This document shows, piece by piece, positions 1 to 12,081 of a DNA stretch of 64,000 nucleotides. The notes beneath the pieces were generated by a model. The model saw only the letters and a program-made list of their open reading frames with translations, was not told the DNA's origin and searched no databases. The position numbers and the translations under genes are program-made. The DNA lies in NCBI RefSeq assembly GCF_053078305.1, contig NZ_CP166875.1; one strand, given 5' to 3'. Within the stretch, counting starts at the first letter, position 1, and each line of letters begins with the position of its first letter. Source of the stretch: a plasmid.

Positions 1-582
1 AGTCACAAATTTTACATTATCTTGATGTGTTTTTTTCTCCTGTTTATTAGTCTCTTTAGGTGACAGGAGTATGGTTAGAATGCTAAATGCACCCATTACA
101 ATAAATATTACATTCCAGTTATAATAATCAAGTATTAATGCTCCGGCCAGAGGTGCTATTAATGGTATTATCGCACTTGTTGATGATATGTCAGAAAGTG
201 CTCTTTTTAGCTTTAGTGGTGGAAAAGACTCTTTAGCAATGGCTTTTGATATTACAGGTCCGGCACCTGCACCTATTGCCTGTAGAATTCTACCCAAAAG
301 AAGCATATTTAAATCATTGGCCATAAAACATACAATACTGCCAATAAGAAATATAATTAAGCATATAGTCATTACGCGTACTTTTCCGAAATAATCACCT
401 ATGGTTCCTGATATCAGTTGACTAAATGCAAATACAATAAGAAATCCACTAATACTTAGTTGAATTAATGAGTAGTCAGCATGAAATGCTTTCTGTAGTT
501 CTGGTAACGCAGGCACAATCATGTCAGTTGATAATGCCGATAATGATGCAGCAAGAACAAGGTAAATATATAGTTTTGTCAT
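1..582 (-). CDS. MFS-type transporter, N-terminal part (gene continues beyond window start)
   Basis: Uninterrupted reverse-strand frame from ATG at 580-582 (AGGGA Shine-Dalgarno upstream) to position 1; translation MTKLYIYLVLAASLSALSTDMIVPALPELQ... is strongly hydrophobic with several predicted TM helices, typical of major-facilitator transporters. Not in ORF track because no stop in window. Confidence 0.5.
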   Translation of the reverse strand, partial: MTKLYIYLVLAASLSALSTDMIVPALPELQKAFHADYSLIQLSISGFLIVFAFSQLISGTIGDYFGKVRVMTICLIIFLIGSIVCFMANDLNMLLLGRILQAIGAGAGPVISKAIAKESFPPLKLKRALSDISSTSAIIPLIAPLAGALILDYYNWNVIFIVMGAFSILTILLSPKETNKQEKKTHQDNVKFVT

Positions 583-979
583 AATTAATCCCTGATAAAA
601 ATATTCTTATTTATCATATTTAAAATGCTTACGCCATCGGTATGTTTTATATTTTGAGATAGCACTACGATAGTGTTTGAGTAGAAACTAATGGGTACTC
701 CCAGATGCATATTCAGGTTGATGGAAGGGGGTAAAAATCCCCGTGCTGAACCTTCCATCCGGAGGGAGGAAACTTATCATTTTAACCTGTTCGTCCGTCG
801 GAATAGTCGAAATCGATCGCGCATCGCTTTTGTGAATAGTTATGCAAGTACCTGAAAACGATTCTGACGCATTTTTTCGGTTTAGCCTGGGGTTTCCTTG
901 TCTTTTTGCGTTTTTGCGTCAGAACGCGTATGAGAGCGTTTCAGCGGTACGTACAATTAAGGGATTATGGTAAATCCCC

Positions 980-1408
980 TTACTGTCTGCCCTCGTATCC
1001 ATCGAGATAAACCGCAGAAATGGTGTCTGCCATTAGTTTCATTTTTTTCGGCGACGGCATATCGCTGTTTGTGTATTTTCTGCCAGCAAAGGTTGTTGTG
1101 CTCCGGAGTGAGTGAAAAAATTTTTCTGAGTGGAATTCTTTTATACGTTGCTGTGCCGTTTCTGCTGATACTCCGGCTGCTTTGTCTTTCACCCCCATAT
1201 CCCGGAACTGCTGAAAGAACGGGAGCATCATACGTATGGTGTCTGCTTTCTGGGTGTAGAAGTTAGGATCAAATCCATCATCTGAAGCATAAACATAATG
1301 CCGGGTATGTCGTTCCAGGCTGGTCTTTGGTGTGCATCCTGTAAGAACGATTGTTGCTGTTATCAGAGGTATCAGAAGCAGCCTGGCAACGGCAGATCTC
1401 ATAAACAT
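980..1408 (-). CDS. putative lipoprotein
   Basis: 142-aa ORF with N-terminal signal peptide and lipobox LTGC (MFMRSAVARLLLIPLITATIVLTGC). Confidence 0.4.
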   Translation of the reverse strand: MFMRSAVARLLLIPLITATIVLTGCTPKTSLERHTRHYVYASDDGFDPNFYTQKADTIRMMLPFFQQFRDMGVKDKAAGVSAETAQQRIKEFHSEKFFHSLRSTTTFAGRKYTNSDMPSPKKMKLMADTISAVYLDGYEGRQ

Positions 1409-1522
1409 CTCCTTGCGTTTTTAATCTTGATACTCAGGGAGTTATATTTCCGAAGAGTATCTCTTATCATACGTCGGTTTACCCCAATGTGATTTGATGG
1501 TCAATGAGTCAGGAATAATCCC

Positions 1523-1801
1523 GTGAAAAAATGTGTGCCAGTCCTGCTTTTTAGTGTTCTTTCTGCTTCGGTTGCCAGTCATGCGGACAGCAATGTTTTT
1601 CAACAAAAGGCCGAGAAGACAAAAAATGGCATTGTTGCGGATGTTAATGCCAGACAGAAAATGTTCAGTAACAGACTGAAGATACAACTTCAGATCGATG
1701 AGTTGAGGGCATCTCTGGCTGGCACCAGAGATGCCCAAAAAAGAGAGGATTTGCGTAAAAAACTGGAGTCTCTGGAGCGGCAAAAGAAATCCTTACGCTG
1801 A
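1523..1801 (+). CDS. small secreted protein, function unknown
   Basis: 92-aa ORF with N-terminal signal peptide (MKKCVPVLLFSVLSASVASHA) followed by a charged, coiled-coil-like C-terminus. Confidence 0.3.
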   Translation: MKKCVPVLLFSVLSASVASHADSNVFQQKAEKTKNGIVADVNARQKMFSNRLKIQLQIDELRASLAGTRDAQKREDLRKKLESLERQKKSLR

Positions 1802-2083
1802 TGGGGGCGTATTTTCCCCGGTTTCTTCCATAACCTTTTTACCGTTCAGATATTTACGGGCGAGGCGAATGCGTCTTGCCTGGTATACCGCCGAGTAAGC
1901 CTGGGTGGGATTCACACCGTTACTGATTTCACTGACCACATGGCGCTGATCAGCCAGTGTCAGCGTGTAAACCTGTTTCTGGATGAGGTCACGGGCTTTG
2001 TCATGCTCATATCCGGCAGCAACAAGGGTGTCGAGAAGTCGTTTGTCTGTTTTGTTCAGTTTATGGCGGGGTGATTTGCTCAC
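1793..2083 (-). CDS. hypothetical protein
   Basis: 96-aa ORF, basic and hydrophilic; no recognisable motif. Confidence 0.25.
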   Translation of the reverse strand: MSKSPRHKLNKTDKRLLDTLVAAGYEHDKARDLIQKQVYTLTLADQRHVVSEISNGVNPTQAYSAVYQARRIRLARKYLNGKKVMEETGENTPPSA

Positions 2084-2214
2084 ATCGTTCTCCGTTTTTC
2101 ATGATCCAACAGTTTTATATCTCATCCTGATTTGCTCCGGTGTTCTGTTTCGACGTTCTCAATGCCTGCCTCCCCATAGTGTGATCCTTATTGCAAAAAT
2201 GAAAATCCATGCTC

Positions 2215-2277
2215 TTGACATGGACAATGGTGAGTAGTAGGTTTTTCTGTACATAAAACCAGTGGTTATATGTACAG
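2215..2277 (+). promoter_or_regulatory. SOS-regulated colicin promoter with tandem LexA boxes
   Basis: Perfect -35 TTGACA at 2215-2220; sequence CTGTACATAAAACCAGTGGTTATATGTACAG (2247-2277) matches the paired overlapping LexA operators (CTGT-N8-ACAG) typical of colicin promoters; AAGAGG Shine-Dalgarno before ATG 2322. Confidence 0.55.
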
Positions 2278-2321
2278 TGTGTTGTTTTTAATTTATTGTT
2301 TTAATTATCAAAGAGGAATTT

Positions 2322-3818
2322 ATGGCTAAAGAACTAAGTGGATATGGCCCAACTGCTGGTGAGTCTATGGGGGGAACAGGGGCGAATCTGAATCAGCAAG
2401 GTGGAAATAATAATAGTAATAGTGGGGTTCACTGGGGTGGTGGTTCAGGCTCTGGTAATGGAGGTGGTGAACATGGAAGTCAGACGGGGTGGGGATGGAG
2501 TAAAACCAATAATCCGGATGTGCCGCCTTATGTTGATGATAATGGGCAGGTGCGCATTACCATTACAAATGGTCTGGTAAAAACGCCTGTATATGGAGTT
2601 CCTGAGGCTGGCGGAAATAGTGATGTTCAGGGGGGCTATATTCCTGAAAATCCTAATGATGAAGTTGCTCGTAAGTGGGATAAAAACAACTTACCGCGAG
2701 AGATTGATGTGAGTATCGATGGTTTTAAATATCGTGTAACGCTTAATGATAATGGTAGAGCTATCGGTATTCTTCGAACAGGTGTCCGTCCTTACGTAGG
2801 GAGTGAAAAAGCTAAGGCGGGTATTATGGAAAAAATCAATCATAAAACACCTGAGGAGATATATGAGGCGTTAGGTTTTAATAAAGATGAATCTCAGCGG
2901 CAGGAAAAAGCAAAACAACAGGCTGAAGATGCGTGGGATCGTTTGCCTCCTAATGTGAGAAAATTTGATGTTGATGTTGAACAGTTCCACTATTTAGTGG
3001 TGCTTGATGATTATGGTAATGTTTTATCTGTAACTAGAACAGCTGTTCGTCCTTATGTAGGGAGTGAAAAAGCTAAGGCTGGTATTATGGATAAAGTCGA
3101 CCATAAGACCCCGGAAGAGATATACGAGGCATTAGGATTTAATAATGAAGAGCCTCAACGACAGAATCAAGCTAAAAAAGCTGCTTATGATGTATTTTAT
3201 TCTTTCAGTATGAACCGTGACCGGATTCAGAGTGATGTGCTAAATAAAGCAGCTGAACTTATATCTGATATGGGTAACAAGATCGGTGATTATCTTGGTG
3301 AATCTTATAAGTCGTTAGCAAGAGAAATTGCTGATGATATCAAAAATTTCCAGGGGAAAACCATCCGTAGCTACGATGATGCAATGGAGTCATTAAATAA
3401 AATTTTGTCTAATCCTAGTTTTAAAGTTAACAGAGCAGACCGTGATGCACTGGTGAACGCCTGGCGAAGTCGTGATGCTCAGGATATAGCAAATAAACTG
3501 GGGAATATCAGTAAGGCTTTCAAAGCTGCCGATGTAATTATGAAGATTGAGAAGGTCAAGGAGAAAAGCATCGAGGGATATGAAACTGGAAACTGGGGGC
3601 CGCTGATGTTGGAGGTTGAGTCTTGGGTTCTCAGTGGTATGGCCGCAAGCGTTGCCATGACATTGCTTAGTGCTATAATTGGATCATTCACACTACCGGC
3701 GTTAGCATTAACTGCAATAAATATTGCAGGTATTATGGGAATTAGTTACCTTGCATCATATATTGATGCAAGTGTGGCTGAAAAAATAAATAATAAATTG
3801 GTTCATTTTACTCATTGA
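2322..3818 (+). CDS. csa: pore-forming colicin, colicin S4-like
   Basis: 498 aa. Gly-rich N-terminal translocation domain (GGTGANLNQQGGNNNSNSGVHWGGGSGSGNGGGEHGS), internally duplicated central segment (TGVRPYVGSEKAKAGIM.K..HKTPEEIYEALGFN occurs twice), C-terminal A-type pore domain with hydrophobic hairpin (GYETGNWGPLMLEVESWVLSGMAASVAMTLLSAIIGSF...). Length and duplicated receptor domain fit colicin S4 as recalled; not verified by search. Confidence 0.85.
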   Translation: MAKELSGYGPTAGESMGGTGANLNQQGGNNNSNSGVHWGGGSGSGNGGGEHGSQTGWGWSKTNNPDVPPYVDDNGQVRITITNGLVKTPVYGVPEAGGNSDVQGGYIPENPNDEVARKWDKNNLPREIDVSIDGFKYRVTLNDNGRAIGILRTGVRPYVGSEKAKAGIMEKINHKTPEEIYEALGFNKDESQRQEKAKQQAEDAWDRLPPNVRKFDVDVEQFHYLVVLDDYGNVLSVTRTAVRPYVGSEKAKAGIMDKVDHKTPEEIYEALGFNNEEPQRQNQAKKAAYDVFYSFSMNRDRIQSDVLNKAAELISDMGNKIGDYLGESYKSLAREIADDIKNFQGKTIRSYDDAMESLNKILSNPSFKVNRADRDALVNAWRSRDAQDIANKLGNISKAFKAADVIMKIEKVKEKSIEGYETGNWGPLMLEVESWVLSGMAASVAMTLLSAIIGSFTLPALALTAINIAGIMGISYLASYIDASVAEKINNKLVHFTH

Positions 3819-3840
3819 TAGAAAAAGAGAGGTGATCATA

Positions 3841-4374
3841 TCACTTCTCTTTAAACGACCTATAGGAACCAATACAAAACCAAAAATACAAATATGAGAA
3901 TATAAAAATAATGGAATGTAAGCTAATGTAAAAAAACGATAGGAGGATTATATTTACAGACATCAGTTTTAGCATTTTTGCAGAACTGGTTAGCTCCGTA
4001 TCAGCAAATAAAAAAGCATATATTAAGATAGCATAAAAAAAAGTGAAAAAAATATTTATTTTCAGTAGTTGCCATGGAGATTTATCATTTTTTAATCTAA
4101 GATTTTTACATGTGTTTAAAAATAAAAGAATGGCAGTGAAAGGAGCTGTTTTTACATACAGACTCAATGTTTTGCTAAATACTGGGGTGTTTTGTGAGTA
4201 TATGGCAGGTAGGTCATTTGCTCTCAATGCTATATAGTTTAATATATTGGATGTTGGATTGTGGATATATATAATGATTATTGAGAACATTGGGATTAGT
4301 GAAATTATAAGGAAGTAAAACATCTTTGTTGCTATTTTATTTCCTTTGTCTGTTTGGTGGTGTTTATTTATCAT
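3841..4374 (-). CDS. csi: colicin immunity protein (A-type, polytopic membrane)
   Basis: 177-aa ORF convergent with and immediately downstream of the colicin gene; four hydrophobic segments; size typical of A-type pore-colicin immunity proteins; AT-rich. Confidence 0.7.
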   Translation of the reverse strand: MINKHHQTDKGNKIATKMFYFLIISLIPMFSIIIIYIHNPTSNILNYIALRANDLPAIYSQNTPVFSKTLSLYVKTAPFTAILLFLNTCKNLRLKNDKSPWQLLKINIFFTFFYAILIYAFLFADTELTSSAKMLKLMSVNIILLSFFYISLHSIIFIFSYLYFWFCIGSYRSFKEK

Positions 4375-4425
4375 CTGTTTACCTGTAAATTTATTATATT
4401 AAAGATTTTGATGAATGGCTATGGT

Positions 4426-4716
4426 TTATTTTCTCTTTAGAGAGTAATATATGAAACTTGGCAATCCTACTGGGATTGCCATTAATAAATAGAACAATGC
4501 AGATAACTTGCATAAGTACCAGGGCTCTTTTTTTAACTTTGTATTTTCTTTGATATATCTAGATATGGTTAATTTAGAGTATGGATATAGCAATACATAT
4601 ATTGACGATATAAAGATAAATAACAAAGGAGTGTTATCAGTGTCGTTAAATATTAAAATAAGAATCCATGGTATAAGTGATTCAGGTAAATTATGTAGGT
4701 AGTATTTTAAATGCAT
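4426..4716 (-). CDS. small polytopic membrane protein, possible second (E1/K-type) colicin immunity protein
   Basis: 96-aa ORF with about three hydrophobic segments, same orientation as the immunity gene, lying between it and the lysis gene; size matches E1/K-type immunity proteins. Confidence 0.35.
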   Translation of the reverse strand: MHLKYYLHNLPESLIPWILILIFNDTDNTPLLFIFISSIYVLLYPYSKLTISRYIKENTKLKKEPWYLCKLSALFYLLMAIPVGLPSFIYYSLKRK

Positions 4717-4745
4717 AAGTATTTTTACTTTTGTCGGAAAGGGAT

Positions 4746-4877
4746 ATGAAAATAATAATTTTTCTAATTAAAATATTATTCTTGTCAGGATGTCAAGCAA
4801 ACTATATTCGTGATGTACAATGAGGAACCGTTGCGTCATCTTCGTCTTCTGAACTGACGGGGATCGCGGTTCAGTAG
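4746..4877 (+). pseudogene. csl: colicin lysis lipoprotein gene interrupted by in-frame TGA
   Basis: ATG 4746 encodes [25 protein letters not shown] (lipobox LSGC), then TGA at 4821-4823, then in the same frame [18 protein letters not shown] and TAG at 4875-4877. The stop sits where colicin lysis proteins have the first Gly of the conserved ...[12 protein letters not shown]... motif. Confidence 0.6.
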
Positions 4878-5076
4878 AAAAGATCAAAGGATCTCTTGAG
4901 ATGGGGTCCCAAGCCGGAAACCTGGATTTTTCCGCTGGATTTTTCCGCGACCAGTAACGGCGTGGGGTGTCACATAAATGACCGATTGAGTGACTGTCAC
5001 TGAAACAACGATTTCTACATCAGATTTCGTCACATAACCCGTCACCTATTGGGGTCAGTTTGGATATAGAGAATTA

Positions 5077-5114
5077 GGGGGCTGGCGCTCAGTGGAACGA
5101 AAACTCACGTTAAG
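5077..5114. repeat. Tn3-family 38-bp terminal inverted repeat
   Basis: GGGGGCTGGCGCTCAGTGGAACGAAAACTCACGTTAAG, near-identical to the Tn3 terminal IR as recalled (about 36/38). Confidence 0.6.
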
Positions 5115-5468
5115 CAATGTTTTCTTCCTCCGATGCCTCTTTTTGCCCTTTAGTCACCAGTTCTGCCAGCGTGAAGGAATATGGCCGAGCATATTGATGT
5201 GTCCGTGGCAAAGTGGTGAGAGGCGTGCGATATCTTCATCATTCACGATTTCCCCCTGTGCCCTGAAATGGTCCAGGGCAGCCTGCATATAAATAGTGTT
5301 CCATAATACGACGGCGTTAGTCACCAGCCCCAGTGCGCCCAGTTGATCTTCTTGACCATCGGTATATCGCTTTCTTATCTCACCTTTCTGACCGTGACAG
5401 ATAGCTCTGGCAACGGCATGGCGACTTTCTCCCCGGTTAAGTTGGGTCAGGATGCGCCAGCGGTAACG
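5110..5468 (-). pseudogene. tnpA: Tn3-family transposase, 3'-terminal fragment (truncated and frameshifted)
   Basis: Reverse-strand translation gives ...RYRWRILTQLNRGESRHAVARAICHGQKGEIRKRYTDGQEDQLGALGLVTNAVVLWNTIYMQAALDH...LSPLCHGHINMLGH, then after a 1-nt frameshift ...YSFTLAELVTKG...EENIA-stop ending inside the IR. Only about 119 codons remain. Confidence 0.55.
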
Positions 5469-5492
5469 GTGATTTCATATTGAAGATAACTG

Positions 5493-5513
5493 TTGTACAA
5501 TTTAATTGTACAA
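5493..5513 (+). promoter_or_regulatory. palindromic operator / promoter upstream of phd-doc
   Basis: Inverted repeat TTGTACAAT..ATTGTACAA containing a TACAAT -10-like hexamer, about 20 bp upstream of the phd start. Confidence 0.4.
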
Positions 5514-5530
5514 CTCAAAGAGGAAGCACT

Positions 5531-5755
5531 ATGTTTACATGTAACTATAGCCATGCTCGCGATAACCTGGCCTCGTTGCTCGAGCTGGCGGTTGATGAAA
5601 ATCAGCCTGTTGAGATTCAGCGCCGTAAAGGTGGCGCGGCTGTACTGGTTGATAAAGACGCTTTTGAACGATACCGTAAAGCGGCTCTTGATGCTGAGTT
5701 TGCTGAGATCATGCAAAGTCATGGGACGGCCTATACGGAGCTTTCTAAGCGATGA
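5531..5755 (+). CDS. phd: Phd/YefM-family antitoxin
   Basis: ATG 5531 with AAAGAGGAAG Shine-Dalgarno; small acidic protein MFTCNYSHARDNLASLLELAVDENQPVEIQRRKGGAAVLV...; stop overlaps the doc start (ATGA at 5752-5755). Confidence 0.75.
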   Translation: MFTCNYSHARDNLASLLELAVDENQPVEIQRRKGGAAVLVDKDAFERYRKAALDAEFAEIMQSHGTAYTELSKR

Positions 5756-6138
5756 AATTCGTTAGTTCACAGGAAATGATTGAGTTTCATGACCGCTTGA
5801 TTTCGCGTGATGGTGGCGTGGCGGGTATGCCAGAACCCGGTCGCGCTGACGCGATCATTCATCGTGTTTTGAACATGTATCATTATGAAGGTGTGACAGA
5901 TATTATGGATCTGGCTGCCGTGTATTTAGTTGCTATTGCTCGTGGTCACATTTTCAACGATGCAAATAAGCGAACAGCCTTGTTTGTTGCACAGGTTTTT
6001 TTAAAACGGAATGGTATACATATTATTAGTTCGCGTATTTCGTTTGATGAAATGCAAATTATCGCTTTGAATGCTGCAACAGGAGAATATAACTGGAAGA
6101 TGGTTTCTGACCATCTTAAAGCCATTATTTTAAATTAG
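5752..6138 (+). CDS. doc: Doc (death-on-curing) toxin, Fic/Doc family
   Basis: 128 aa with the Fic/Doc motif HIFNDANKRTA; translationally coupled to phd. Confidence 0.85.
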   Translation: MKFVSSQEMIEFHDRLISRDGGVAGMPEPGRADAIIHRVLNMYHYEGVTDIMDLAAVYLVAIARGHIFNDANKRTALFVAQVFLKRNGIHIISSRISFDEMQIIALNAATGEYNWKMVSDHLKAIILN

Positions 6139-6709
6139 ATATAGATATCCAATCAGCAGCATTTTACAATCTACTGAGCAATGTAAAAATCATATATCTT
6201 TTTGCTATATAATTTCTGGCGTATGTGCTCAATTCAGACCTGACACTTTTCCGCTTCCTCGCCCACTCGCTCACTACGTTCGGTCGCTGGGGCTGCGGCG
6301 AGCGTTTGTAAGTTTTCTCCAATACTGACGACGTGCTTCCTAGGACAATGAGTCTCTCAGAATCGGTTTCTCGAAGTGACGAGCGATCAGAATGGAGACA
6401 AATAAATTCGGGAAACGAACCTTCACGGTAAGTTTTGTCACATTTATCATCCCTAAACATGAGAATTATCACCAAAACTAACCACCCAACAAACAGCAGC
6501 GCCGGGAGCAGCATTATAAAATCATGTACAGTGTTGCGTAACGACATGATAAGTTCTCAATATGCTCTTTACCAGATTATACCAGTGATACTTTAACGCA
6601 CCATCATTAATGCTAATGTATGCATACATTAGCATTAACATGCTGACAGCAACAAGCGGCGGATTTACGTCTGGATAACGTAAATGATTGCGGTATACAG
6701 GCCAGGCGG

Positions 6710-7558
6710 TCAGATTTTCAGCCGTGCCTGTTCCTGCAGCAGTTCCAGATGATATGTAGCAATAGCGTTTACCACCCCTGCCGTCATCCGTGCGTCGGCG
6801 ATCGCTGAGTGTGCCTGCCCTTCCCAGGTCAGTCCGGCCTGGCTGGCAGCACAGGCCAGTGAAATCGTGCCATAGCGGTTGGTGGCCCCATAATATCCTG
6901 CAGCCAGCTCCATCGCACAATATACCGTCAGTTCTTCCAGCCAGTCAGCCGGATCGCTATGTGCGGCAGCAGTCTGTTTCAGAATGCGGATATCGAACCG
7001 GGCATTAAAGATAATTACTGGTCGGTCCCCGATTGCATGCCGCAGTTGCCGCGCCACATCTGTCCATGATGGTGCGCCGCAGAGTGCCTGCTCACTGATA
7101 CCATGCACGGCGGCGGCCTGCGCCCCGATGGCGACCGTGGGCTTCAGCCTGGTTTCAAACACCACCTGACCGGCCGCATCGGTCAGGCCGATTTCCAGGG
7201 CTTCCGAGGTATTATCCAGTCCTGTCGTTTCAGTATCCAGAAAGAGTGGTGCCAGACTCAGCCAGTCATATGCCTGCCGTGCCATCCGGCCACTGGTGCT
7301 GTTTAGTCGGGATAAAACGGAAAGCCGCTGGCCAGCCAGCTGTTGTTTACTCGTCAGAGGGCGTTTCTCACGCATCGGAACACAATCTGCAATTCGGTAT
7401 ACAGCGAACCTGCCACCATAAGTATTTTTATACCACTTAACCGGCTCAGCACCGGGGGCTGGCTTCATTCTGAATTCATCGCGCAGACGTCCTTTCGAGA
7501 AACACCTGTCTTCGGCAATCGCCTGCGCACGTCTGGTGACCAGCTCATCATTATTCAT
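6710..7558 (-). CDS. DEDDh 3'-5' exonuclease (DnaQ-like) with about 100-aa N-terminal extension
   Basis: 282 aa; Exo I motif FLDTETTGL, Exo II IIFNARFDIRIL, Exo III HSAIADARM; same strand and 45 bp downstream of the RelE/ParE-like toxin gene. Confidence 0.75.
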   Translation of the reverse strand: MNNDELVTRRAQAIAEDRCFSKGRLRDEFRMKPAPGAEPVKWYKNTYGGRFAVYRIADCVPMREKRPLTSKQQLAGQRLSVLSRLNSTSGRMARQAYDWLSLAPLFLDTETTGLDNTSEALEIGLTDAAGQVVFETRLKPTVAIGAQAAAVHGISEQALCGAPSWTDVARQLRHAIGDRPVIIFNARFDIRILKQTAAAHSDPADWLEELTVYCAMELAAGYYGATNRYGTISLACAASQAGLTWEGQAHSAIADARMTAGVVNAIATYHLELLQEQARLKI

Positions 7559-7603
7559 GGTTCTTGCATCTCCGTCAGACGTTTTTATATCCGGACAGCC
7601 CCT

Positions 7604-7885
7604 CTATGGCCACTTCTGTGCAGTATGCAATACTCGCAGGATATACACTTTTCCCCACTGGCTGTCGACCTCATAAACCAGAACAAAATGCGGGTGAATA
7701 ACCAGTTCCCGGGTACCTTCCACACGACCGTTGCGGCCTTTATACGGCTGCCCGGCCAGGCTGCTGGCTGAATAACCAATCCGTTCGTCCAGTTCAATGG
7801 CAGCCATCAGGTTCTGCTCCGCAATGTACTCACGAATGCGCTTCCTGTCCTGGCTGGCCAGCATGGTCCAGAATATCTCCATCAT
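7604..7885 (-). CDS. RelE/ParE-family toxin
   Basis: 93 aa; C-terminal ...HFVLVYEVDSQWGKVYILRVLHTAQ typical of the RelE/ParE fold; start overlaps the upstream antitoxin stop by 4 nt. Confidence 0.75.
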   Translation of the reverse strand: MMEIFWTMLASQDRKRIREYIAEQNLMAAIELDERIGYSASSLAGQPYKGRNGRVEGTRELVIHPHFVLVYEVDSQWGKVYILRVLHTAQKWP

Positions 7886-8151
7886 TTACCGGCAACCTTC
7901 CTGCTCATTTCATCCCGCCATGCTGCAGCAGAGGATTCGACCATGTCATGGGGAAGCACATCGCCGTGCTCGAGTTGCTGACGTCCTGCCGCAACCTGGT
8001 CACGGAACCAGGTATTATGCTGCCGTTCAACGGTCTGGCGCATAAAATCCCGGATTAACTGGGAGCCATTACGGTCCATGCTTTTTGCAGCGGCCATAAA
8101 AGCATCCTTCAGTTCAGCGTCGATTCTTAAACTCATATTAACCTGTGCCAT
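7882..8151 (-). CDS. RelB/ParD-family antitoxin (ribbon-helix-helix)
   Basis: 89 aa; N-terminal RHH signature MSLRIDAELKDAFMAAAKSMDRNGSQLIRDFM; first gene of the operon. Confidence 0.7.
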   Translation of the reverse strand: MAQVNMSLRIDAELKDAFMAAAKSMDRNGSQLIRDFMRQTVERQHNTWFRDQVAAGRQQLEHGDVLPHDMVESSAAAWRDEMSRKVAGK

Positions 8152-8874
8152 TTATCACCTCGTCATTACTACGTATATACACAGTATATAACGATTCAGA
8201 TATCGTCACCAGGATATGCCGCGCCAGCGGCATGGAAGGCGGCGCTCTGTTGTTTCATATGATACCGGAGTAAAACCGCCGAAGCCCGGCGTAAGCCGGT
8301 ACTGATTGATAGATTTCACCTTACCCACCCCCATCCCTGCCAGACCATACCCACTTTCAGCCATGAGAGAGCTTCTGTGCGCGGTCGGAGTGGTCCCGAC
8401 GAGGGTTTACCCGAAGTCGGGGCGTATCTCCGCGTTAGCGGGCCGTCAGGGCCGCTTACGAGCGTGTATTCAACACTTCCAGCGAGAAGACTGACAGCGA
8501 TGATGCTATTTAGTTACAACATTCATAATTAAAAGCGATGTTGTTCCCGCCCTTCGGGCGGGGGCGGCCTCGCTTTTCAGTTATGAGAGGTGAGCACGGT
8601 GCTGCGTTTGTGTGGTGTTTTTATTCCTGATGTCTTTTTGCTGTGGTTTCAGAACGGTGAGGTTCGGGGCCCGCGCGTTAGCGTGGGAGGTGCATATTTG
8701 CTTGTCCACAGGACAGGCACTGAATAGGTTTTCTTTTCAAATGGAAGTAATTAAGTAGTTTAAAGGAAATACAGTACTGGGGTTTAAAAGAAACATTGCA
8801 CCCTGTAACGCCTGCGGCTGGCGCTTTATAGCATTAACGGTTGTAATCTTACGGAGAAGTCCCTTGCAGTTAAA

Positions 8875-8883
8875 TGTGGATAA
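8875..8883. promoter_or_regulatory. DnaA box in putative oriR downstream of repA
   Basis: TGTGGATAA (complement of TTATCCACA) about 180 bp downstream of the repA stop, where RepA1-type replicons place their origin. Confidence 0.35.
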
Positions 8884-9058
8884 ACAGAATTCCCCGTCTG
8901 TGAGACGTGTTTTGCGTGAAAAACAGGGGGAGCAAGGCGAGCCGGAAGGCAGATGATGAGGCTGTTTTTTGTGTGCTGTGCTGCTTTTTTGTGCGTCGCC
9001 GGGCTTCAGACGTGCGGAAGCCTCCGGCGCAGGCCGGATTATTCAGATGAGGTCAAAC

Positions 9059-9931
9059 TCAGGGTGAGGCTGTGGCCAGCCGTGTGTAGTTGTTGTTCCG
9101 CGACATTATCATGCGTTCCTTCACGCGACGGTCGATTTCGCGCTTCACGGCCTCCAGGCTTCCCCGGAAACGCCCTTCCGCGATTTCACGTGTCAGCTGC
9201 CGTTTCACCAGGGTGACAATGTCCTGACGGGTCCTGCCTGCATCGCGGCGCGCACGGGCACGTTTCATGCCGTGGGACTTAAGCTCTGCCTGATAACTGC
9301 GGAAACGCTCGCGCACAAAACGCCAGGCTCTCGCTATCAGTTCATCCATACCCAGCGCATCCAGCCCCTGCTTTTTGCGCAGCTTGTTTTCCCATTCCAC
9401 GCGGCTGCGGCGTGCGGAAGCCACTGCCTCTTCTGAGATATCAAGTGAGTCAAACAGTGCCGGCGTGAACGTGATGTCGGTCGGGATGTTACAGCCAATT
9501 GTCGGGTCGTATTCCGTCTGGTAGGTTATCAGCCCCAGCTCAGACAGGAACTTCAGGGCACGGGTGGCACGGGTGATGGAGAGTTTCCCGGCCTCAGACT
9601 CCGTCGCCAGTCCGCACTCAATGGCCAGCGTGGTGATGGAGCACTGGACGCGGTTGGCCAGCGGATCGTAGTGGAAACACAGCCCCTGCAGCAGCGCATC
9701 AATCGCCCGGCGGCGCAGCACCGGCGGCATACGCCGGCGCAGGCCGCGCGAACGGGCATACGCCACATGCGCGGCAAAATCAAAACGGGAGGTGAAGCCC
9801 ACCGCCTTTTCCATCAGTTTTTCGCAGAACTTCAGCGTCCCGGCATCTTCACGGGGTGTGAAGACCGGATTCGGGTTCTTTACCTGACGGTATGTGCTTT
9901 CAGTAAATGAGGTCTGGTTCAGGGCCGCCAC
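9059..9931 (-). CDS. repA: RepA1-type replication initiator (IncFII / I-complex family)
   Basis: 290 aa; ...[99 protein letters not shown]... closely matches IncFII RepA1 as recalled; start codon uncertain (GTG in ORF track). Confidence 0.85.
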
Positions 9932-10130
9932 AAGCTGTCGCTTATGGCGGAAACAGAATGCCGTGCGTTAATGCACTGCGAAGGGTTGAATCTCTGGTAC
10001 GGTTTCATATATACTTATCCCGTATTCTGTGAGGCCCCCATTATCTTTCTCTGATTCCGCCAAGTTTCGTGGAAAGATGATGGGGGTTTTCCTTTATGGC
10101 CTTCTGAAACTTTTTTCAGCCTTCCGGCCC
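9932..10130 (-). promoter_or_regulatory. repA leader / antisense-RNA control region (inferred)
   Basis: Region upstream of repA on the coding strand; contains 5'-TTGGCG-3' on the repA mRNA strand (window 10057-10062), the loop hexanucleotide used in antisense-RNA control of I-complex/IncFII replicons. No copB/repA2 ORF upstream. Confidence 0.35.
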
Positions 10131-10633
10131 CGGCAAACTGCCGTCGTTTCTGCCATACATCCTGAATGCCTTATGGCGCATTCTGCCGTTTTCTGGCTTT
10201 CCGGACCGCGAGGATCCCAAAAGCCACTGAATAACGATCCGCAATATACCCCTTTTCCACCGCTTTGAAAAGCCGACACGATTTCTCTGATTTACCAGGC
10301 CTCTCATTAACCACCTAAAAAACGTCGTTTTTTTGAACTATGTCAAAAAAATAGACAATTCCACAAACGATCTTTTATGCTGTGTTTTTCATCATTTTTA
10401 GTAGAAGAGATCGCCTAAAATTTTTAAACGATCTAATCCTCCAGACACCGCACACAAATCAGCATAATATGCTGCTTTATCAAATATAACGATCTATTTA
10501 ACTGCTTATCTTCACTCTTGCCACAGATACATCCTTATGTAATATATTTGCCAGCCATTAATCCTGTTTGCAGGAGTTGTCGGTTTTCGCCCGCCTCGAA
10601 ACCGTCCACAAGGCTTACAAGAGTGCGTAAATC

Positions 10634-11275
10634 ATGTGCCTGTCAGAACTGCAGGCCGGGCTGAACGAGGGTCAGCCGCTGTTTCCGACACATGCTTTAT
10701 GTATTCGCCGTTCACAACAACATCGAAGCCCCTCTGCGGGGATCGATTTTCGCGGAGCGTTCCGGATTTTGAATATCAGTGAATTACATCAACGCAACTG
10801 GTATCTGGCTCAGTACATCCCTGCCGGCAAAAACCGCGAACATCTCTTTTCCTGGCTTTCCGAACAACACGTCCTTCCCTGGACACCCCTGATACTGAAA
10901 AAGGTCCGCCGCACGGATAAAGTCTGTGGTTACCGTCGACATATACACGCCGTGTTTCCCGGTTACTTTTTCCTGAAAGCAGACCCCGAACGCCACAGCT
11001 TCACTCACCTTCGCCGTCACAGTGCCTTTCTGGACTTCGTGAAAATGGCCGGTGAAATCAAAACCGTCAGGGAGGATATCGTTCAGTCTTTGATGAAAGT
11101 GTACCCGGATCCTGCGCTCAATCCGGCAGCCAGGGAGGAGCTGGATGCTGCCTCCACCCTCTGGCTGACAAAAGCGCGTTACCAGTACCTCCTCCGGCTT
11201 GATGCACAGCCTCTGCCGGAGTCGAGGATCGCCCTGCTCCTGCACCTGGTATCTGATGACGGAGCGTTGACATGA
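10634..11275 (+). CDS. NusG/RfaH-like (NGN domain) protein, possible transcription antiterminator
   Basis: Segment NWYLAQY...LPWTPLILKKVRRTDKVCGYRRHIHAVFPGYFFLKADPE...FLDFVKMAG parallels the RfaH/NusG NGN domain (FPNYLFVEFDPE); no clear KOW domain; start uncertain. Confidence 0.45.
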   Translation: MCLSELQAGLNEGQPLFPTHALCIRRSQQHRSPSAGIDFRGAFRILNISELHQRNWYLAQYIPAGKNREHLFSWLSEQHVLPWTPLILKKVRRTDKVCGYRRHIHAVFPGYFFLKADPERHSFTHLRRHSAFLDFVKMAGEIKTVREDIVQSLMKVYPDPALNPAAREELDAASTLWLTKARYQYLLRLDAQPLPESRIALLLHLVSDDGALT

Positions 11276-11415
11276 AAATTGCTGTCTTAATTTGACGACT
11301 TTTCCCGGCCTTTATGGCCGGGATTTTTTTCCCTTCTGTTTCCACAATGCCCGGCACCGGTGACACCTGAGGGTGTACGGAGAGCGGCTGTCGGGCATTT
11401 TTTCAGGACGCCTTT

Positions 11416-12081
11416 ATGACCATTCTATCCCAGGAAAACCCTGTCATTCTGTTACTGGAGAATATGCTCGAAGCACTCTCCACCGCCCCGGACAACATAA
11501 ACAACGAACGGCGTCGCCGGCGTTACCTGCTGAACTGGCTTGACACTGCCCGTCAGATGCGCGAGTTCAGAGGAATGGCTGAAGAGTTCACTACCCTGCG
11601 AAAACTGCTGGCCACCAATTCAGACATACCGGTAGCAAACACCCTGAAATCACTGCTGGAAAGTGGCAATAACGCAGCATTATACGACCTGTACCGCTTC
11701 CGCTCGGCTCTTTCCGCGTGCAGAAGTCTGGGATGGCAGATTGGCACGTGCGCATGGAACGACCAGCTGCTGAGTGAGACACTTTCCCGTGCGCAAACAG
11801 GTAAACGTCATATCCTGCAGCTGAACAGTACCAGAGACACCTTTTCCACCACGGGCAGAATGCTCAGACCGGTGGCATTTTCATTAATTCATCCGGCATC
11901 CCTCGAATCTTCAGAAGTGGAAGAGATATTCCGGGATGAAGGTTTTATACTCGCGCACGGACGCGAATGCAGCCTGAACGGCAGCGGCAGAAACATGCTG
12001 TCACGCATTCTTCATGTGGGGCATTCAGGTTTACCGAAAGCCGAATGGGGCATAGATCACAGCAATCACCTGTTACACTGA
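11416..12081 (+). CDS. hypothetical protein
   Basis: 221-aa ORF, no recognisable motif. Confidence 0.3.
   Translation: MTILSQENPVILLLENMLEALSTAPDNINNERRRRRYLLNWLDTARQMREFRGMAEEFTTLRKLLATNSDIPVANTLKSLLESGNNAALYDLYRFRSALSACRSLGWQIGTCAWNDQLLSETLSRAQTGKRHILQLNSTRDTFSTTGRMLRPVAFSLIHPASLESSEVEEIFRDEGFILAHGRECSLNGSGRNMLSRILHVGHSGLPKAEWGIDHSNHLLH

Follow-up and report, generated by a model that had tools for sequence, protein, structure and literature searches.

The segment at positions 5077-5466 of the E. coli plasmid DNA analysed here (a stretch of 64 kb, referred to below as the window) is very probably the dead left end of a replicative transposon of the Tn3 subgroup, left behind by a series of nested insertions and a subsequent deletion. 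It carries a single terminal repeat and the 3' end of a transposase gene, and is placed between the remnants of two miniature elements and a phd-doc toxin-antitoxin module. The features concerned are the following:

4903-5050, plus strand: left 135 nt of a 204-bp Tn3-derived, TIME-like MITE, with the GGGG... repeat start, cut at 5050 by the MITESen1 stub
5051-5076, plus strand: MITESen1 left terminal repeat, initial 26 bp (26 of 26 positions identical; GGGGTCAGTTTGGATATAGAGAATTA)
5077-5114, plus strand: 38-bp left terminal inverted repeat of a Tn3-subgroup transposon (GGGGGCTGGCGCTCAGTGGAACGAAAACTCACGTTAAG)
5110-5466, minus strand: tnpA pseudogene, 3' part only, about 119 codons (Pfam DDE_Tnp_Tn3, alignments to relatives)
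5466/5467, no strand: point at which the broken tnpA gives way to the phd-doc upstream flank (alignments to relatives of tnpA and of phd-doc)
5474-5514, plus strand: predicted phd-doc promoter/operator, of putative function (consensus scan and direct reading)
5531-5755, plus strand: phd antitoxin gene (74 aa; Pfam PhdYeFM_antitox, E=9e-10)
5752-6138, plus strand: doc toxin gene (128 aa; Pfam Fic/DOC, E=4e-11)
6344/6345, no strand: site where the colicin/relic/phd-doc block meets the IncFII replicon region (plasmid comparison, divergence of the alignments)

The terminal repeat and the broken transposase gene

The repeat at 5077-5114 is identical to the 38-mer of Tn3 at 36 of 38 positions, with mismatches at positions 5 and 9, and its length (about 38 bp), GGGG start and ACGTTAAG end are those of Tn3-family repeats. 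The inner 29 bp are the same as in Tn3, and the 21-nt inner core, an exact match to Tn3, is unique in the window. GGGGGCTGGCGCTCAGTGGAACGAAAACTCACGTTAAG was the single match to the Tn3 repeat in the 64-kb window, and no match was obtained in 100 dinucleotide-preserving shuffles. The variants G5 and G9 are also present in pToe17-1 (identical repeat) and in pSA53IncF (one further difference); since they are common to both plasmids, they represent a marker of the lineage and not a trace of decay. The stop codon of tnpA falls within the repeat.

The 5 bp to the left of the repeat (AATTA, 5072-5076) are the same as nt 22-26 of MITESen1, and one element end survives. A second inverted terminal repeat was absent from the 64-kb window, both in searches with the 38-mer or the 21-mer core (up to 3 mismatches) and in a fuzzy search allowing up to 11 substitutions.

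The tnpA fragment is equivalent to the final ~123 codons of the gene for a 1001-aa transposase. Its minus-strand translation contains ...YRWRILTQLNRGESRH...HINMLGH, then changes frame and continues as YSFTLAELVTKGQKEASEEENIA to the stop codon; the part preceding the shift reads ...YRWRILTQLNRGESRHAVARAICHGQKGEIRKRYTDGQEDQLGALGLVTNAVVLWNTIYMQAALDHFRAQGEIVNDEDIARLSPLCHGHINMLGH. When the two parts were spliced, the resulting 121-aa peptide matched Pfam DDE_Tnp_Tn3 with E=4.4e-36 over profile positions 292-389 of 389, i.e. the last 98. Loss of 1 nt after 5180 (an A, retained in relatives) causes the frameshift, and a second lesion, a 12-nt (4-codon) deletion, is located after 5143. Both deletions, together with 3 substitutions, are private to the window copy when it is compared with five relatives. 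Nucleotide identity to the relic (substitutions only, across the whole 390 bp) amounted to 98.2% for the pToe17-1 relic, 97.4% for both Enterobacter sp. JJBC and Salmonella Birkenhead, 96.7% for pSA53IncF and 92.1% for Tn3.

Most of what the initial annotation, made from the sequence alone, had stated about this segment is borne out. It had recognised a near-consensus Tn3-type terminal repeat at 5077-5114, about 119 codons of a transposase C-terminus on the reverse strand (now matched to the Pfam profile) and a 1-nt frameshift near HINMLGH, which is the deletion after 5180; the 12-nt deletion had gone unnoticed. The comparison with Tn3 ends that it recommended gave the 92.1% identity over 390 bp quoted above, and the partner repeat that it suggested seeking elsewhere in the replicon was not detected in the 64-kb window.

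The ~1000-aa TnpA with a DDE_Tnp_Tn3 domain that characterises the Tn3 family is represented here by its last ~119 codons only, in a frameshifted form, and two of the three catalytic DDE residues are lacking. A further tnpA was not found in the 64-kb window by tblastn and blastn with the JJBC TnpA and element, nor was tnpR by tblastn with the JJBC TnpR, and no res site was present in the window, which leaves the relic with no resolution module there. Because it has no start codon or promoter, encodes only the final ~12% of the protein, is frameshifted, and is accompanied by neither a second repeat nor res and tnpR, the segment 5110-5466 cannot act as a transposase or as a transposon. The relic is thus a member of the Tn3 subgroup by descent and not a functional element. 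The same sequence in pSTEC2018_553-c bears the RefSeq label 'Tn3 family transposase; frameshifted; incomplete; missing N-terminus', and in other RefSeq carriers "Tn3 family transposase" is listed under the identical sequence.

Nested miniature elements on the colicin side

The 26 bp preceding the repeat were identified by comparison with the ISfinder sequence (Table S2 of PMC13367494) of MITESen1, a Tn3-derived element of 256 bp, full copies of which were found at L015 3505-3760 and L016 3167-3422. MITESen1 beyond nt 26 is absent from the window, and what is present is a remnant of an element otherwise defined by its 256-bp length and imperfect ~38-bp terminal repeats. The RefSeq records of the same sequence carry no annotation of this stub. 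It interrupts the 204-bp element at 5051, and the Tn3-type repeat begins at the base following it (5077). Three Tn3-family left ends are therefore nested in the same orientation, and none of the three elements has its right part in the window. The outer junctions (4902/4903, 5050/5051 and 5076/5077) fall precisely at the ends of the elements, as would result from transposition; 5076/5077, being an exact element end, is a transposition junction and not a recombination scar.

A full copy of the 204-bp element is present in pColZ (L007 2503-2706), where it is bordered by 39-nt GGGGTTC... terminal inverted repeats (82% complementary) and has no coding capacity. The window copy contains a 13-bp tandem duplication at 4922-4947, and blastn of the element against the window returned element positions 23-135 only, at 4938-5050. 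The element was detected in 219 PLSDB records, with 155 near-full-length copies, and one copy in an E. coli plasmid (L018 61-264) has a perfect 5-bp target duplication (TCAAT) at its borders. Judged by these copies, the 204-bp family as a whole seems to have the properties that define TIMEs (short, non-coding, with Tn3-like repeats and a 5-bp duplication). Two diagnostic strings, CCGGAAACC from the repeat and GTGACTGTCAC from the interior, do not occur in the supplementary files listing the TIME sequences of a 2026 survey (PMC13367494), and the element may thus be unnamed so far. The possibility that 4895-5076 constitutes one element present in more than 2000 plasmids was rejected, as this count came from the MITESen1 stub, and the 204-bp element itself accounts for the 219 records. 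Repeated GTCAC/GTGAC motifs were also observed within 4925-5050.

Homology to the small ColE1-type colicin K plasmid runs through the lysis gene and ends at 4902, in the middle of a terminator hairpin (AAAGGATCTCTTGAGAT/CC); the small colicin plasmid runs on into the ColE1 ori at the point where the window begins the 204-bp element. The terminator hairpin of the lysis gene is cut by the insertion of the miniature element at 4902/4903. The lysis gene itself (4746-4880) carries a GGA-to-TGA nonsense mutation at codon 26 (4821-4823) when compared with small colicin K plasmids, and lysis-mediated release is probably disabled in this plasmid. Further upstream, positions 2322-4716 encode a 498-aa pore-forming colicin and, beyond it on the other strand, two immunity proteins, named in RefSeq Cui (colicin U-type, 3841-4374) and Cki (colicin K-type, 4426-4716), which suggests a chimeric colicin operon in which an extra immunity gene has been retained.

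The inner junction, the phd-doc module and the block containing them

Homology to tnpA stops at 5466, with one nucleotide (A5466) of possible microhomology. Across this junction the tnpA relatives read ...GCGGTAA/TCTTCATC and the phd-doc relatives ...CTA/CGGTGATTTC; in the tnpA alignment, GCGGTAA is followed by TCTTCATCATC in the relatives and by CGGTGATTTCATATTG in the window. No insertion sequence or repeat was found at 5466/5467, and the 1-nt microhomology is uninformative on the mechanism. Since it is located inside tnpA, 5466/5467 is a non-transpositional recombination junction.

The predicted promoter comprises a candidate -35 box, TTCATA (5474-5479; alternatively TTGAAG, 5480-5485), and a -10 box, TACAAT (5496-5501); TTCATA and TACAAT were proposed by the consensus scan. 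A palindrome, GTTGTACAATTTAATTGTACAAC, holding two TTGTACAA boxes, is placed at 5492-5514. The phd and doc genes overlap by 4 nt (5752-5755), and both Pfam matches are above the gathering cut-off, which identifies a type II Phd/Doc pair (RefSeq proteins WP_000493532.1 and WP_000673981.1).

The module occurs in many plasmids, in at least three other left contexts devoid of the relic, with unrelated DNA upstream and an identical Phd protein. When the four contexts were compared, i.e. (i) the window, (ii) the pEco118UIb/pSTEC299_1 type, (iii) the pGMI14-004_2 type and (iv) the pECOED type, the block from ~5478 rightwards was common to all of them, and the four independent left borders were situated within ~20 bp of each other, just upstream of the predicted promoter. 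By analogy with toxin-antitoxin systems in general, loss of the promoter would shut off the labile antitoxin while Doc persists, and the cell would die. The four left borders, together with the consensus promoter prediction, suggest that the deletion endpoint was probably set by selection, loss of the phd promoter being lethal.

In other plasmids, Tn3-family repeats of several types were detected within 90-370 bp of the phd-doc module (L003 3841-3878; L011 2341-2378 and 3458-3495; L004 3628-3665 and 5137-5174; L006 2958-2995; L007 2708-2745), recurrently inside, or abutting, other Tn3-family repeats. Such clustered ends surround phd-doc in the window, pColZ, the ExPEC XM plasmid, pSTEC299_1 and pECOED. 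The clustering could reflect either a target preference or survivorship near a toxin-antitoxin pair that cannot be deleted.

Just downstream of doc there is an inverted 59-bp fragment (6246-6304) with 86% identity to the ori-rop region of a small ColE1-type plasmid, which is responsible for the thousands of weak matches to small mobilisable plasmids obtained with phd-doc as the query. A single deletion within a small ColE1 colicin plasmid was considered and rejected as the origin of the arrangement, because this fragment is inverted and such a deletion cannot explain both sides.

Searches of PLSDB and of complete E. coli RefSeq genomes revealed how far the neighbourhood of the relic is conserved. 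Nine PLSDB records with different backbones carry window positions 1-6344 (the colicin operon, the relic and phd-doc) without interruption, and positions 4800-5560 are likewise uninterrupted, and 98-100% identical, in 9 PLSDB plasmids. Seven RefSeq E. coli replicons contain the relic with 100% identity. The carriers of the block include ~108-kb IncFIA/FIC plasmids as well as a 36-kb IncFII plasmid with IS1 after doc. From 6343/6344 onwards another set of plasmids matches the window, in a region containing repA, a 3'-5' exonuclease gene and yacAB (IncFII). As judged from these alignments, the colicin operon, the relic and phd-doc are one inherited block of ~6.3 kb, formed once and moving between backbones. 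Neither an empty site (the colicin block without the relic) nor an intact donor (the whole transposon within MITESen1) was found in PLSDB or in the complete E. coli genomes.

On the inner end, the initial annotation had been close: the relic does end abruptly near the proposed ~5468 (the exact position is 5466), the break, located in tnpA and next to the upstream flank of phd-doc, is consistent with the recombination scar it described, and the palindrome begins 25 bp from 5466/5467, as had been estimated. The mosaic nature of the region was likewise confirmed, several distinct junctions having been mapped by plasmid comparison. Its view of what the relic joins has to be revised. Colicin homology ends at 4902 and the two MITE stubs (4903-5050 and 5051-5076) intervene, so that the relic does not directly adjoin the colicin module, nor does it link that module to a combined toxin-antitoxin and replicon module, since 1-6344 is one block and the replicon is joined at 6344/6345.

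In sister plasmids (pFHI_NMBU_11_02, L001 9546-10389) the block continues, after the point matching 6344, into a unit of ~845 bp, and the window diverges from them at about the outer end of this unit. The unit contains a degenerate Tn3-family-like repeat, res-like motifs shared with the interior of MITESen1, a gene for a 213-aa serine recombinase and a MITESen1-like right repeat (4 mismatches), and from its sequence it looks like a transposase-less mini element of the Tn3 family. A perfect-looking hairpin was also noted at 6604-6641. Its match to mir-155, the only one in the Rfam search of 4000-7000, was discarded, being sub-threshold (27 bits vs a gathering score of 56), obtained on both strands and attributable to the palindrome.

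Proposed history, alternatives and relatives

The arrangement may be explained by four steps: (i) the 204-bp element would have landed in the terminator hairpin that immediately follows the colicin lysis gene (4902/4903); (ii) MITESen1 would then have entered the 204-bp element (5050/5051); (iii) the Tn3-type transposon would have split the left repeat of MITESen1 by inserting after its nt 26, ahead of nt 27 (5076/5077); and (iv) one or more illegitimate deletions would have eliminated the 5' 88% of tnpA (~2.6 kb), res, tnpR, any cargo and the right repeat, together with the right-hand parts of both miniature elements, so that tnpA became joined, at codon ~879, to sequence 7-13 bp ahead of the phd-doc -35 box. 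The predicted intermediate would read MITESen1 nt 1-26 followed by GGGGGCTGGCGCTCAG... and, on its far side, ...CTTAACGTGAG...CCCC followed by AATTA and TTGTACGGTAAGCC. As no intermediate was found, we infer the order and number of the insertions, and whether a single deletion or several took place, from the nesting.

Other explanations have to be weighed against this history. It is very unlikely that the solo Tn3 repeat acts in cis together with the MITESen1 stub, binding a resident Tn1/2/3-type transposase and thereby providing immunity or one-ended transfer of the block; the same applies to a milder version, in which the clustered Tn3-family ends would result from target preference and not from survivorship. 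We give slightly less credit to the idea that the solo repeat alone has been kept for a function in cis, either target immunity against Tn1/2/3 or service as a one-ended substrate that moves the block. The identity of its inner 29 bp to Tn3 and the presence of the block on several backbones speak for such a role, as does the specific transposase-repeat interaction required for target immunity in the Tn3 family (Nicolas et al. 2010, as cited in PMC9579193). However, the relic is identical across its carriers and hence gives no test of selection, while the block border at 6344 and the other contexts exhibit IS1, IS91 and other rearrangements instead of repeat-defined ends. A second Tn3-like match, present in 6 of the 7 relic-bearing RefSeq replicons, may speak against strong exclusion, though weakly at best.

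One-ended transposition, in which a single repeat and a transposase supplied in trans would have generated a variable endpoint 390 bp inside the element, is very improbable. Events of this kind with variable endpoints have been reported for the Tn3 family (Avila et al. 1988, as cited in PMC4133298), and the relic does start exactly at a repeat, but a continuous target with a 5-bp duplication would then be expected. Instead, the left flank is AATTA and the right flank (CGGTG...) is not its repeat; nor does the right flank continue MITESen1 (TTGTACGG...); it corresponds to the upstream flank of phd-doc in other plasmids.

It is hardly conceivable that phd-doc is an integral passenger of a Tn3-family element, with the present adjacency being native. 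Toxin-antitoxin pairs are often integral to Tn3-family transposition modules, where they lie next to res, tnpR and tnpA (PMC7157771), and Tn3-family repeats flank the phd-doc module in several other plasmids. Nevertheless, tnpA is cut at codon ~879 of 1001 and has no start, which is not a native arrangement, the same module, identical in its Phd protein, is preceded by unrelated DNA in at least 3 contexts, and the JJBC relative has tnpR, not phd-doc, upstream of tnpA. Finally, a chance similarity, or one confined to the repeat with a coincidental tnpA translation (the outcome named in the initial annotation as fatal to its reading), can be dismissed in view of the Pfam E-value of 4.4e-36 and the 92-98% nucleotide identity over all 390 bp.

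Interpreted as the remnant of nested insertions and deletion, the relic is an example of ordinary plasmid mosaicism, and it is already annotated in RefSeq. The present analysis adds the exact junctions, the 12-nt deletion, two overlooked MITE stubs and the replicon boundary at 6344/6345, which results in corrected module boundaries at 4902/4903, 5050/5051, 5076/5077, 5466/5467 and 6344/6345. The relic dates one ancestral rearrangement in a small group of E. coli plasmids with a colicin K/U-type operon beside phd-doc (four RefSeq carrier strains have STEC in their names), and it may be used as a lineage marker for the ~6.3-kb block. Two more general points are that annotation easily misses Tn3-derived miniature elements, and that surviving deletion endpoints can accumulate just outside the promoter of a toxin-antitoxin pair.

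Comparison with known systems places each component of the region. As in the phd-doc system of P1, a Phd/YefM antitoxin gene is followed by an overlapping gene for a Doc toxin of the Fic fold, with a palindromic operator over the predicted promoter; the pair in the window is, however, a plasmid homologue and not the P1 genes, and its regulation is a prediction. The 204-bp element shares with the TIMEs IS101, TIME244 and IMU (PMC4133298, PMC13367494) the ~39-bp GGGG... repeats, the lack of coding capacity, the plasmid location and, in one copy, the 5-bp duplication.

The relic resembles the left end of Tn3, Tn2 and Tn1 in its repeat (36/38), in the 3' end of tnpA extending into the repeat, which contains the stop codon, and in the C-terminal protein sequence of TnpA, which is the same except for a few residues. 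It differs by ~8% nucleotide divergence, indicating a separate lineage, and by the absence from the window of res, tnpR, bla and the right repeat, with only the last ~12% of tnpA remaining. Closer relatives form an unnamed Tn3-like lineage, with 96.7-98.2% identity to the relic, represented by JJBC plasmid unnamed3 (L002), pToe17-1 (L014), pSA53IncF (L010) and Salmonella Birkenhead (L009). Only pseudogenes and relics of this lineage, and no intact member, were found in PLSDB and the complete E. coli RefSeq genomes. The closest fuller relative, at 7003-11642 of the JJBC plasmid, has a nearly full tnpA with one frameshift and tnpR upstream of it; in this segment the frameshifted tnpA is followed by tnpR and then by a 'microcin B17 family TOMM' gene, which may be cargo of the lineage. 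The same GGGGGCTGGCGC repeat variant is shared by the relic, pToe17-1 and pSA53IncF, and the 12 nt and the A that are missing from the relic are retained in all four copies.
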